Origin: Chloroflexota bacterium
GTDB taxonomy: Bacteria; Chloroflexota; Anaerolineae; UBA4142
Direction: 5' to 3'
Assembly: GCA_037445855.1 (NCBI GenBank)
Contig: JBBIJS010000001.1
Span: forward strand, 1-46,957
Length of the DNA: 46,957 nt
Shown in pieces: positions 36,017 through 38,482 of the stretch. Below the pieces are notes generated by a model, which saw only the letters and a list, made by a program, of their open reading frames with translations, searched no databases and was not told the origin of the DNA. The position numbers were made by a program, and so were the translations under genes. Numbering within the stretch: position 1 is the stretch's first letter; each line of letters starts with the position of its first letter.

Positions 36017-38482
36017 ATGTTTGACGCCCTGCTCTGGTGGCTCCTCATCGAACTCATCGGCATCGCGGTGTTGCCGGTGGCGCTCCGTTTCTTCCGCAAC
36101 CTGCCGGATCGCGGCTATGCGTTCATCAAGCCGCTGGGCTTGCTGCTGATCGCGTATCCGTTCTGGCTGCTGACGACGCTCGGCTTTCTCACGAACACGC
36201 GCGGCGCAATCGCGCTCGTCGCCGTCGGCGTCGCGGCGGCGGCGTGGTGGTTCGGCAACCGAACGCAGACGGACGATGAGCAACCGTCATCCGTCAACCG
36301 TCATCCGTCAGCCGTTGCCTGGCTCCGCGAACACGCAGCACTCGTTATCACCACCGAGCTTGTATTCACTGTCGCGTTCTTCGCCTGGGTCGGCGTGCGC
36401 GCGTACATGCCAGAGATCACCGCGACGGAAAAACCGATGGAGTTTGCGTTCCTCAACGGCGTTTTACAGAGCGATCATTTCCCACCGCTCGATCCGTGGC
36501 TGTCGGGTTACGCGATCAGCTACTATTACTTTGGCTACATCATGATCGCGATGCTGACGATGCTGAGTGGCGTCGCCTCCAGCGTCGCGTTCAATCTCGC
36601 GATCGCGCTGCTATTCGCGCTCGCGGCGACCGGCGCGTTTGGGCTGGCGTACGACCTCATTCGCTCTTCGCCCCGCGCCCCTCGCAAGTGGCAATCATTT
36701 TTCTATCCATTGTTCGCTCCCATCTTCCTTCTCCTTGCCGGCAACTTGGAAGGATCGTTCGAAGCGCTGCACGCGAAAGGAATCGGCTCGCCGCAGTTTT
36801 GGACCTGGCTCGACGTGAAAGGTCTGGCGACCGTGCCGCCGACGAACACGTTCGTGCCGACCGACAACTGGTGGTGGTGGCGCGCGTCGCGCGTCGTCCA
36901 CGATGTCGTCGCCGGGCAGACGCAAGAGGTCATCGACGAGTTTCCGCAGTTCAGTTTTCTGCTCGGCGATATGCATCCGCACGTCCTCGCGCTGCCGTTT
37001 GTCCTGCTCGCGCTCGCGGCAGCATTGAACTTGCTAAAAGAAACTGAGGGAATGCAACTGCTGACCGGCGATTTGTCCCTCGCCCCGCGCCTCACGCAAT
37101 TCGCAATTCGCAATTTGCTTTTACCTTTGATTCTGGGCGGTCTCTTCTTCCTCAACTCCTGGGACATTCTGCCGTACGGCTTTATCCTGCTCGCTGCGTT
37201 CGCGATTGCGCGCTACCGCGCGAGCAATCATTGGGACGCCGGCGCGACGCGCGATCTGGCGATCTTTGCGATTGCGCTCGGTGCGCTCAGCGTTGTGCTC
37301 TACTTGCCATTCTATATCGGTTTCCAGTCGCAGGCGGGCGGCATCCTGCCGACGCTGTTCGTCAAGACGCAGCTGCACCAGTACCTGATCATGTTCGGTT
37401 TATTCGTTTTCATTCTTGGCGCGTTCCTCGCGCGGCTCATCACCGCACGCCGCGAAATCCGCGCGCGCGCGTGGCTCTCGCGCGCCGCGCCGGTCGCCGC
37501 CGCGCTGGTCGGTTTCCCTATCGCGATCGCGTTGCTGGCGGTGGTGATCGTCACGCTCAGCCCGGCGCTGCAAGAGCAAGCGCGCGCGGTGATTCCGGGC
37601 ATCGGCAGCAGCGCGCTGGCAACCGTGGTTTCCGCGTATTTCGGTCCGCTCGTCGCCGACCCGTGGCTGTTTGTCTTGCTCGTCATTTTTCTCGCGGCGA
37701 TTGTGGCGCTCGCCCGCGTCGATCAAATCGACGAAAGCACAACGTTCGTATTGCTGATGGCGTTCACCGGTTTGCTCCTCACCTTCGGCGTCGAGTTCGT
37801 TTATCTGCGCGATCAATTCGGCACGCGGATGAATACGGTGTTCAAGTTTTATTTTCAGACCTGGACGCTGCTTTCGATTGCCGCAGCGTACGCGGTGTTC
37901 TATCTGTCGCGCACGCTGCGCGGGCTCGCGCGCGGCGCATGGTTCGCCGGGCTGGCGCTCTTACTTGGCGCAAGTCTGATCTATCCCGCGCTGGCGATTC
38001 CGAACCGCGCCGACGCGTTCCAAAAGACGCCGACGCTCGATGGCATGGCGTGGATTCGCGACACCAATCCGAGCGATTACGCCGCGATCCAGTGGCTCGC
38101 CGCGAACGCGCCGCGCGGCGCGACCATCGTCGAAGCGGTGGGCGACGAGTACTCGTACGGCAATCGCATTTCGATGGCGACCGGCTTGCCGACGGTACTG
38201 GGCTGGTTCGGGCATGAGTCGCAGTGGCGCGGCAACACGCGGCTGTTTCAGGACGCCGCCGCCGGCATTGACCGTGCGGCGGACGTTGCGCGCCTCTATC
38301 AAACGCTCGATGTCACAGAAACATTGACTTTGCTCGACAAGTATGCTATAAAATTTGTCGTCGTCGGTTCGGAGGAACGTACCAAGTACGGCCTCACCAA
38401 ACCGCAGCTCGACAAATTCGGCAAAGCGATGACGCTGGTATTTGAAAATGGCGATGACAGAATCTACGGTCGATCAAACTGA
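36017..38482 (+). CDS. Chlor_Arch_YYY (TIGR03662 / DUF2298) polytopic membrane protein
   Basis: 'TEKPMEFAFLN', 'YYYFG' (36521-36535), 'WWWWRASR' (36869-36892), 'DEFPQFSFLLGDMHPH', 'MNTVFKFY', C-terminal 'GLPTVLGWFGHESQWRG'. Confidence 0.85.
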   Translation: MFDALLWWLLIELIGIAVLPVALRFFRNLPDRGYAFIKPLGLLLIAYPFWLLTTLGFLTNTRGAIALVAVGVAAAAWWFGNRTQTDDEQPSSVNRHPSAVAWLREHAALVITTELVFTVAFFAWVGVRAYMPEITATEKPMEFAFLNGVLQSDHFPPLDPWLSGYAISYYYFGYIMIAMLTMLSGVASSVAFNLAIALLFALAATGAFGLAYDLIRSSPRAPRKWQSFFYPLFAPIFLLLAGNLEGSFEALHAKGIGSPQFWTWLDVKGLATVPPTNTFVPTDNWWWWRASRVVHDVVAGQTQEVIDEFPQFSFLLGDMHPHVLALPFVLLALAAALNLLKETEGMQLLTGDLSLAPRLTQFAIRNLLLPLILGGLFFLNSWDILPYGFILLAAFAIARYRASNHWDAGATRDLAIFAIALGALSVVLYLPFYIGFQSQAGGILPTLFVKTQLHQYLIMFGLFVFILGAFLARLITARREIRARAWLSRAAPVAAALVGFPIAIALLAVVIVTLSPALQEQARAVIPGIGSSALATVVSAYFGPLVADPWLFVLLVIFLAAIVALARVDQIDESTTFVLLMAFTGLLLTFGVEFVYLRDQFGTRMNTVFKFYFQTWTLLSIAAAYAVFYLSRTLRGLARGAWFAGLALLLGASLIYPALAIPNRADAFQKTPTLDGMAWIRDTNPSDYAAIQWLAANAPRGATIVEAVGDEYSYGNRISMATGLPTVLGWFGHESQWRGNTRLFQDAAAGIDRAADVARLYQTLDVTETLTLLDKYAIKFVVVGSEERTKYGLTKPQLDKFGKAMTLVFENGDDRIYGRSN
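36261..36316. repeat. Heptamer array embedded in frame (aaccgtc atccgtc aaccgtc atccgtc agccgtt, preceded by inverted gacggac words)
   Basis: Encodes 'TQTDDEQPSSVNRHPSAV', an insertion relative to the paralogous module in 28790-33442. Confidence 0.65.
37077..37118. repeat. 42-nt heptamer array embedded in frame (CCCTCGC CCCGCGC CTCACGC AATTCGC AATTCGC AATTTGC)
   Basis: 6 x 7 nt = 14 codons ('SLAPRLTQFAIRNL'). A near-identical array is intergenic at 24104-24135. Confidence 0.75.

Follow-up and report, generated by a model that had tools for sequence, protein, structure and literature searches.

In the crystal structure of the A. fulgidus oligosaccharyltransferase (OST) AglB (AfAglB), residues D47, D161 and H163 coordinate the metal, with D161 and H163 binding Mn2+, while H81 and R426 lie near the phosphate site, and the WWDYG and DK motifs make up the Ser/Thr pocket (PMC8342417). 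Agl23 of Haloarcula hispanica, a TIGR03663 protein, is reported to handle hexose-P-dolichol and to flip lipid-linked glycans in vitro (PMC11182771), and in H. volcanii the OST of the AglB-independent Agl15 N-glycosylation pathway 'remains to be identified' (PMC8241124). The protein described here is an 821-amino-acid (aa) membrane protein encoded in a 46,957 nt stretch of a Chloroflexota bacterium (Anaerolineae; contig JBBIJS010000001.1), the whole of which is referred to as the window. It is a stand-alone DUF2298/TIGR03662 module, and a paralogous module forms the C-terminal part of a 1550-aa protein encoded nearby; both are far above the curated TIGR03662 cut-off of 300.25 bits (Table 1). 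The two modules probably represent a very divergent branch of the GT-C(A) glycosyltransferases, with the architecture of OSTs, which transfer sugars from lipid carriers to proteins on the outer side of the membrane, and of DPY19, in which a set of shared motifs would form an outward-facing catalytic or substrate site.

Six motifs had been proposed in the initial annotation as blocks that remain conserved between the two modules amid diverged sequence. A regular-expression search of the two translations found all six patterns in both modules, and the positions given earlier were exact except for motifs 3 and 4, where they stopped after residues 8 and 16, respectively, of the pattern. The YYYxG motif of TIGR03662 is present as YYYFG at aa 169–173 of the 821-aa protein and aa 882–886 of the 1550-aa protein. 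Overall, the two modules are 32% identical. Identity is 69% (61/89) within the six blocks and 29% (195/671) elsewhere (Fisher p = 1e-12, for blocks picked post hoc), and the positions conserved in an independent set of 145 family representatives include the core of each block, in agreement with the proposal. The module of the 1550-aa protein retains nearly all core residues (E851, D872, Y882-884, D1029, H1031, H1033, R1303, K1309, W1460, H1463 and E1513), the counterpart of W382 being an alanine (aa 1093).

The family is large: clustered at 50% identity, it has 7,475 clusters with an E-value limit of 1e-3 and 2,925 with a limit of 1e-30. Among 145 near-full-length representatives, mutually no more than 50% identical, 87 positions are at least 90% conserved, and these cover the core of every motif block. 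Forty-six of them are also at least 90% conserved in 120 haloarchaeal proteins collected by homology search: W7, P20, G33, F117, R128, E138, P156, P157, D159, W161, G164, Y169, Y170, Y171, G173, N243, R292, I306, E308, F309, P310, F312, D318, H320, H322, N380, W382, P431, F432, E593, R604, N606, T607, F609, K610, Y612, Q614, W616, A690, W693, G723, G729, W730, R753, G784 and E787. Two distant members found by tblastn of a plasmid collection, a Halarchaeum protein (29% identity) and a Pseudobutyrivibrio (Firmicutes) protein (24% identity), score at or above the TIGR03662 cut-off; the core residues are kept in the former, and most of the core positions checked are retained in the latter. The YYY triad occurs in every module compared with the archaeal and Firmicutes members and is at least 90% conserved in both the bacterial and haloarchaeal sets, and R604, N606, T607, F609 and K610 are conserved in all modules checked. 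Motif 3 is lineage-specific, its Trp cluster being missing in haloarchaea, where just [ST]-R292 is kept. The motif set is therefore family-wide for motifs 1, 2, 4, 5 and 6, across the 145 representatives, the 120 haloarchaeal proteins and the Firmicutes member, and not for the Trp cluster of motif 3. Several conserved elements had not been recognised previously, namely N243, G374..N380-x-W382-[DS], E593/D599, R753 and G784-x-x-E787.

An AlphaFold2 (AF2) model of the 821-aa protein, built from an alignment of 72 sequences, gave a pLDDT of 91.7 and a pTM of 0.94. Topology was read from the model helices (DSSP), hydrophobicity and loop charges, and predicts 16 transmembrane (TM) helices with both termini outside; Lys and Arg make up 19 of 99 residues in the predicted inside loops against 9 of 201 in the outside loops (C-terminal domain excluded). 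This orientation fits, because the DUF2298 module of the 1550-aa protein follows a PMT_2 soluble domain and because tandem DUF2298-DUF2298 fusions exist. When the 87 conserved positions are mapped on this topology, 60 fall in outside loops or the C-terminal domain and two in cytoplasmic loops; the remaining 25 belong to TM helices, mostly towards the outer ends. This places the motifs at the extracytoplasmic face. The first outside loop of the core (aa 131–170) has 15 near-invariant positions, one basic residue (Lys or Arg) and five acidic residues. The acidic residues of an early extracytoplasmic loop, noted earlier as recalling the logic of GT-C enzymes, are found there as E138, D/E142 and D159. 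The C-terminal domain carries A690-x-x-W693-L, G723..G729-W730-x-x-H733-E734 (motif 6), R753 and G784-x-x-E787. The 'LPDRGY' sequence after TM1 was considered for the first-loop Asp of GT-C enzymes and rejected, as its loop is Arg-rich and predicted to be cytoplasmic, and D31 is not conserved at the 90% level.

Table 1. Positions of the DUF2298 modules, their motifs and predicted structural elements in the window.
Feature	Window position (nt)	Strand	821-aa protein (aa)	1550-aa protein (aa)	Evidence
Stand-alone DUF2298/TIGR03662 (Chlor_Arch_YYY) module, P0001	36017–38482	+			TIGR03662 574.8 bits; PF10060 E = 3.9e-116
Paralogous DUF2298 module of the PMT_2-DUF2298 fusion, P0002	30944–33442	+		719–1550	TIGR03662 577.4 bits; PF10060 E = 1.9e-118
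Predicted N-terminal extension, three TM helices preceding the 13-TM core	36020–36256	+	2–80		DSSP, charge table, hhalign
First predicted extracytoplasmic core loop: E138-K-P-M-E142 (motif 1), P156-P-x-D159-P-W161...Y169-Y-Y171 (motif 2)	36407–36526	+	131–170		
Motif 1, EKPM[DE]FA[YF]LN	36428–36457	+	138–147	851–860 (nt 31340–31369)	Regular expression
Motif 2, [FL]PP.DPW..G..I.YYYFG	36479–36535	+	155–173	868–886	Regular expression
Large predicted extracytoplasmic loop: N243, W285-W288 (motif 3), R292, E308-F-P, D318-x-H320	36737–36976	+	241–320		Conservation, topology
Motif 3, WW.W.ASRV..D	36869–36904	+	285–296	1004–1015	Regular expression
Motif 4, [ND]EFP.F[TS]F..[AG]D[LM]H.H..ALPF	36935–37000	+	307–328	1018–1039	Regular expression
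Candidate divalent-metal site in motif 4, DEFPQFSFLLGD318-M-H320-P-H322, outer end of core TM4	36935–37000	+			
G374...N380-x-W382-D383, predicted outer turn between TM8 and TM9	37136–37165	+			N380, W382 at least 90% in both sets
E593...D599...R604-M-N606-T607-V-F-K610 (motif 5), outer end of TM15; candidate phosphate clamp for a lipid-linked donor	37793–37864	+			
Motif 5, MNTVFKFY.Q.W	37829–37864	+	605–616	1304–1315	Regular expression
Predicted extracytoplasmic C-terminal alpha/beta domain	37976–38479	+	654–821		Domain-only AF2 model, Foldseek, hhalign
Motif 6, GLPTV[IL]GW..HE.Q	38183–38224	+	723–736	1453–1466	Regular expression
Glycan-assembly cluster around the 821-aa gene	21997–43688	+			Family-profile matches

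A Foldseek search of the PDB with the full model returned nine matches at E ≤ 1e-3, all of them GT-C enzymes with a probability of 1.00, including human STT3A (E = 1.4e-6), A. fulgidus AglB (1.5e-6 to 1e-5), DPY19 (1.2e-5), AftA (1.8e-5) and yeast STT3 (4e-5). When modelled on its own (aa 650–821; pLDDT 93.3), the C-terminal domain matched, above noise, just the C-terminal domains of OSTs and the lumenal domain of DPY19; AfAglB-S2 (3vu0) was found at E = 8e-5 and DPY19 at 8e-4, and AfAglB-S1, yeast STT3 and human STT3A were also matched. The TM-scores to 3vu0, 3vgp, 8age_A and the human STT3A chains 8b6l_I, 9n9j_I and 8pn9_A were 0.45–0.52, and the domain is thus predicted to have the AglB core fold. 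A hidden Markov model (HMM) of this domain gave no significant match to the PMT_2 paralogues of the same operon, so it is not a generic GT-C appendage there. Pfam searches with 60 C-terminal domains (window 37964–38479 and 59 homologues) gave a best E-value of 0.11 to AglB_core-like (1/60) and no significant match to Dpy19 (E = 0.31 in 1/60). The likeness to OSTs, previously offered as an analogy only, looks instead like remote homology, and the structural resemblance is to enzymes, GT-C glycosyltransferases with STT3/AglB first, rather than to non-enzymatic proteins. Taken with the family-wide motifs and their extracytoplasmic placement, the enzyme-like predicted fold supports the motif set as a candidate active-site signature. 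In the same Pfam searches, DUF6541 weakly matched 6/60 domains (best E = 4.8e-4) and DUF6798 matched 4/60, sequence matches that hint that the domain may be common to other uncharacterised families of membrane proteins.

The pattern of conservation also bears on whether these proteins are transferases at all. E138, D318/H320/H322, R604 and K610 are retained in all modules, the two halves of tandem fusions among them, and conservation is concentrated at one membrane face and in the soluble domain, as in catalytic GT-Cs. This makes it very improbable that they act instead as a flippase or scramblase of lipid-linked sugars, a scaffold or a pseudo-enzyme partnering PMT_2, with motifs that are structural or ligand-binding, even though the co-distributed TIGR03663 protein Agl23 is GT-C-like in sequence yet reported to be a flippase, and one copy of the paired or fused modules could be regulatory.

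The DUF2298 modules were compared by hhalign with a profile of 115 AglB-like proteins of the Chloroflexota (Dehalococcoidia) type, AfAglB numbering being fixed through one Chloroflexota AglB that aligned to AfAglB at E = 5e-77. A co-linear alignment was obtained across 558 columns (P = 0.0015, probability 16.5%; reversed decoy P = 0.15), in local mode only, as global mode gave nothing, and the C-terminal domains alone aligned with P = 3e-4 (0.45 for the reversed decoy). The match to AglB TM1 begins at aa ~97–107, tentatively equating it with TM4 of DUF2298, and the first three helices would therefore be an addition to a core of 13 TM helices. All of the following equivalences are likewise tentative. 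E138 aligns at D47 of AglB (the first DXD) in the 16.5%-probability alignment, the residue being the Glu of E-K-x-[ML]-[DE] and not part of a DXD. D159-P-W aligns with a later 'FDP[FY]' of the first external loop (EL1) of AglB, and the YYY triad falls near H81. The second DXD motif (D-x-D/E/H) before TM4 has a counterpart in G-D318-x-H320-x-H322, which is at least 90% conserved in the bacterial and archaeal sets, L-G-D318-x-H320-x-H322 aligning with L-G-F-x-D161-H-H163 at an offset of two residues. R604 aligns at R426, A-I-x-W-L with the 'W-L-r-e-N-T-P-E' helix, and Y-V-x-V-G784-x-x-E787 at the DK region.

G-W730-x-x-H-E aligns at W-W-D-Y-G, the second Trp alone being common to both. The aromatic motif had been put forward as the WWDYG-type counterpart; by position, that counterpart is motif 6, in the C-terminal domain. 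Both YYY and WW.W were rejected as WWDYG analogues, since they lie in membrane-domain loops and WW.W is not conserved in archaea. Two stretches of the PMT_2 soluble domain of the 1550-aa protein (window 30299–30376 and 30470–30532; aa 504–529 and 561–581) resemble the 'A-I-x-W-L-x-x-N' helix, with a BLAST E-value of 0.024 and an HMM E-value of 0.1, too weak to call.

A number of observations weigh against placing DUF2298 among the GT-C enzymes. Whole-chain TM-scores to GT-C structures are just 0.30–0.38 for a query that is itself a predicted model, and motif clustering was judged from chain position on the predicted topology. Sequence searches of the PDB with the protein or a 57-sequence profile gave chance matches only (a chemokine receptor and triosephosphate isomerase), and full modules matched no GT-C family in Pfam at E ≤ 10, including PF02516 (STT3). 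The hhalign probabilities are low (16.5% and 38.6%), which is why the residue equivalences with AglB are called tentative. WWDYG and DK/MI are not conserved in the family, and no position of the EL5-equivalent loop (aa 515–549) reaches 90% conservation, so the Glu of a TIXE/SVSE-type motif is missing. Within the window there is no GT2 polyprenyl-phosphate-sugar synthase, and among the five haloarchaeal loci for which neighbourhood data exist, two lack a glycosylation neighbour. The searchable literature holds no paper characterising DUF2298, only two passing mentions, and no experimental datum for its members; the 'YYY domain' of some papers is a different, unrelated domain. Since the STT3 profile, WWDYG, DK/MI and TIXE all fail, DUF2298 is best described as OST/DPY19-like but not GT66.

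From the conservation, sidedness and fold similarity, we infer the roles of individual residues, the donor and the class of acceptor as follows. A polyprenyl- or dolichyl-phosphate-linked sugar would be made at the cytoplasmic face and then flipped across the membrane. Its phosphate might be held by R604 and K610, with N606 and T607, and by the YYY region where core TM2 begins, while a divalent cation may be bound by D318 and H320 (and possibly H322), together with the first-loop acids (E138, D/E142 and D159) and E308. The acceptor would be gripped by the loops on one side and the C-terminal domain (W730, H733, E734, R753 and E787) on the other, and sugar transfer would take place outside the membrane. 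The three extra helices before the 13-TM core would leave both termini facing outwards.

The genomic surroundings of DUF2298 genes point to a lipid-phosphate-linked sugar as donor, from the GT-C clusters of Chloroflexota and the GT2 and GtrA or Wzx neighbours in haloarchaea. In the window, the glycan cluster runs in the order LPG_synthase_TM, NAD-dependent epimerase/dehydratase, GT4, Uma2, methyltransferase, PMT_2, PMT_2-DUF2298, two secreted proteins of no recognised family, DUF2298, PMT_2 and an Agl23-like TIGR03663 protein fused to an NHL propeller. The PMT_2-DUF2298 open reading frame (ORF) spans 28790–33442, its N-terminal half being a PMT_2-type GT-C module by HMM matches. In two relatives (L095 and L096), the order PMT_2, PMT_2-DUF2298, small secreted proteins, DUF2298, (sigma factor), PMT_2, PMT_2-NHL and LPG_synthase_TM is kept, and there are four to six GT-C genes per cluster in these and in the window. 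The only GtrA-type gene of the window's genome is on a separate contig (C46; L110, 2605–5645), with GT4 and Wzy_C (O-antigen ligase/polymerase-type) genes. The Uma2 (putative restriction endonuclease-like) ORF lies at 24986–25954, between the GT4 and methyltransferase genes. The genes upstream of the cluster (an amino-acid ABC transporter and oxidoreductases) are unrelated to it. Elsewhere in the window (11541–13145) is a 534-aa ORF with a Peptidase_S74 (endosialidase intramolecular chaperone) domain, adjoining the gene for a CGNR zinc-finger regulator. Peptidase_S74 domains are commoner in phage tail-spike or fibre proteins.

Of 201 Chloroflexota genomes sampled, 139 have TIGR03662, almost all of them with at least two modules, and the family also occurs in haloarchaea, Methanosarcina and some Firmicutes; a control search showed that H. 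volcanii and M. acetivorans carry members. The nearest homologues of the window protein are labelled Chloroflexota/Anaerolineae. Close DUF2298 homologues were located at 80 genome loci. One of these (36% identity) is labelled as a Nitrosomonadaceae metagenome-assembled genome, which could reflect mis-binning or horizontal transfer, and the others are labelled Chloroflexota. The usual pattern in Chloroflexota is one stand-alone gene of about 800 aa plus one module fused behind PMT_2, and some genera have two DUF2298 modules in a single protein of 2,500–2,770 aa (relatives examined include P0162, of 1722 aa, and P0271, of 2630 aa). Most core residues are retained in each of the tandem modules, among them E138, the YYY triad, D318/H320/H322, R604 and K610. 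As modules come in twos and all those examined retain most core residues, an obligate pair or pseudo-heterodimer is suggested.

In haloarchaea the gene is single-copy. Neighbourhood data cover five loci, and at three of these it adjoins ribosomal-protein genes, within the group rpl44e-rps27e-eIF2alpha-nop10. Divergent neighbours are a GT2 gene with GtrA_DPMS_TM in Halomicrobium (L105, 8691–9909) and Halanaeroarchaeum (L108, 4661–5907), and a Polysacc_synt/Wzx-type flippase gene in Halobacterium salinarum (L104, 8332–9888). On plasmid pNP95 of Pseudobutyrivibrio xylanivorans (L098, 60380–81240), the DUF2298 gene is inside a surface-glycan cluster with two GT2 genes, a DegT aminotransferase, a 'glucosyltransferase domain' protein, an O-antigen ligase family protein and a CapD-like dehydratase.

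Several kinds of acceptor can be considered for DUF2298 enzymes. A protein is slightly favoured, at somewhat less than an even chance, because the only C-terminal domains that resemble that of DUF2298 are those of peptide-modifying GT-Cs. The sequon-binding motifs of OSTs are replaced, so a classical N-x-S/T acceptor site is not expected, and the secreted proteins encoded beside the DUF2298 gene show no enrichment of N-x-S/T sequons. The multi-GT-C clusters and Gtr-like neighbours, on the other hand, speak for a glycan as acceptor and a monosaccharide as donor. The same GT-C chemistry might serve a cell-envelope polysaccharide or glycolipid, the module being one stage of a glycan assembly line outside the cytoplasm, as with AftA/Emb, ArnT and GtrC/YfhO-type enzymes, and this alternative, possible if rather doubtful, is consistent with the number of GT-C genes per cluster, with AftA among the top fold matches, and with the failure to retain OST peptide-binding motifs. 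The GT2 and GtrA neighbours resemble three-component Gtr systems (an adjacency of GtrA, GtrB and GT-C seen in two of five haloarchaeal loci and not in the window), and the Pseudobutyrivibrio copy sits beside O-antigen-ligase-family and sugar-modifying genes. Against it, the C-terminal domain matches only OSTs and DPY19 in the PDB, and not ArnT, AftA or Emb.

The distribution of OSTs raises another alternative. No STT3 match was found in the window's genome, and genuine AglB-type OSTs with WWDYG, annotated 'archaeosortase A system-associated', occur in few Chloroflexota (Dehalococcoidia) genomes. Four clean AglB-bearing genomes (G087, G105, G141 and G078; loci L083–L086) lack TIGR03662, a complementarity that is suggestive at most, because only about two lineages are represented. 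This distribution, together with STT3/AglB being the nearest folds, would suit a true en-bloc OST, equivalent to AglB/PglB and serving organisms or pathways that lack STT3-type enzymes, as would the presence in H. volcanii of both a TIGR03662 member and an AglB-independent N-glycosylation pathway. We regard such a second OST class as unlikely: the motifs WWDYG, DK/MI and TIXE are not conserved, there is no sequon enrichment in the neighbouring secreted proteins, the GT2 and GtrA neighbours suggest monosaccharide donors, and at the haloarchaeal loci with neighbourhood data the gene lies beside ribosomal-protein or unrelated genes. It is similarly unlikely that DUF2298/YYY proteins form a second, AglB-independent class of protein glycosyltransferase that glycosylates surface proteins of the many Chloroflexota without STT3. 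If they did, the euryarchaeal members would be candidate transferases for the Agl15 ('low-salt') pathway, or for a Dol-P-hexose step downstream of Agl22/Agl23. A link to the Agl15 pathway is speculative, and its odds are lowered by the lack of any recognisable agl-type cluster in the five haloarchaeal loci with neighbourhood data.

The large, uncharacterised DUF2298 family is thus likely to be a new, divergent, OST/DPY19-like family of GT-C enzymes. A fold of this kind, with candidate catalytic residues, turns a domain of unknown function into a testable enzyme hypothesis, and the family would add to the range of sequences known for the STT3-type fold. The comparison would separate active-site elements that are kept (the acidic loop, D-x-H and Arg) from those that are replaceable (WWDYG, DK and TIXE). 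The gene is also single-copy in genetically tractable haloarchaea, where one N-glycosylation pathway is still without an assigned transferase (PMC8241124).

Among known systems, AglB/STT3/PglB (GT66) are the best fold match to DUF2298, both for the full-length protein and for the C-terminal domain. Both groups have a core of 13 TM helices (predicted in DUF2298) followed by an extracytoplasmic alpha/beta domain, and an acidic first outside loop. The D-x-H of DUF2298 immediately precedes core TM4, in the manner of the metal ligands D161 and H163 of AglB, and core TM12 has an Arg at its outer end that recalls R426; the two C-terminal domains also share an 'A-x-x-W-L' helix and a 'YV.V' strand. 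DUF2298 differs in having G-W-x-x-H-E for WWDYG and G784-x-x-E787 for DK/MI, and in its three extra N-terminal helices, YYY triad and large extra loop carrying N243, R292 and E308. The C-mannosyltransferase DPY19 (7ZLG, 7ZLH and 7ZLI) is the second-best fold match, for the whole protein and the C-terminal domain alike. Its donor, a monosaccharide linked to a lipid monophosphate, fits the GT2 and GtrA neighbours of haloarchaeal DUF2298 genes, while its motif set and number of TM helices differ. AftA, a mycobacterial GT-C arabinosyltransferase, shares the GT-C(A) fold and, like DUF2298 in Chloroflexota, belongs to a multi-GT-C cell-envelope pathway, but was missed by the C-terminal-domain search. 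The PMT_2/ArnT-type paralogues and TIGR03663 (Agl23) share an operon with DUF2298, and PMT_2 is also joined to it by gene fusion. No sequence similarity between these neighbours and the DUF2298 module is detectable; they carry an acidic DE motif directly after their own TM1, and presumably act in the same lipid-linked-sugar pathway.

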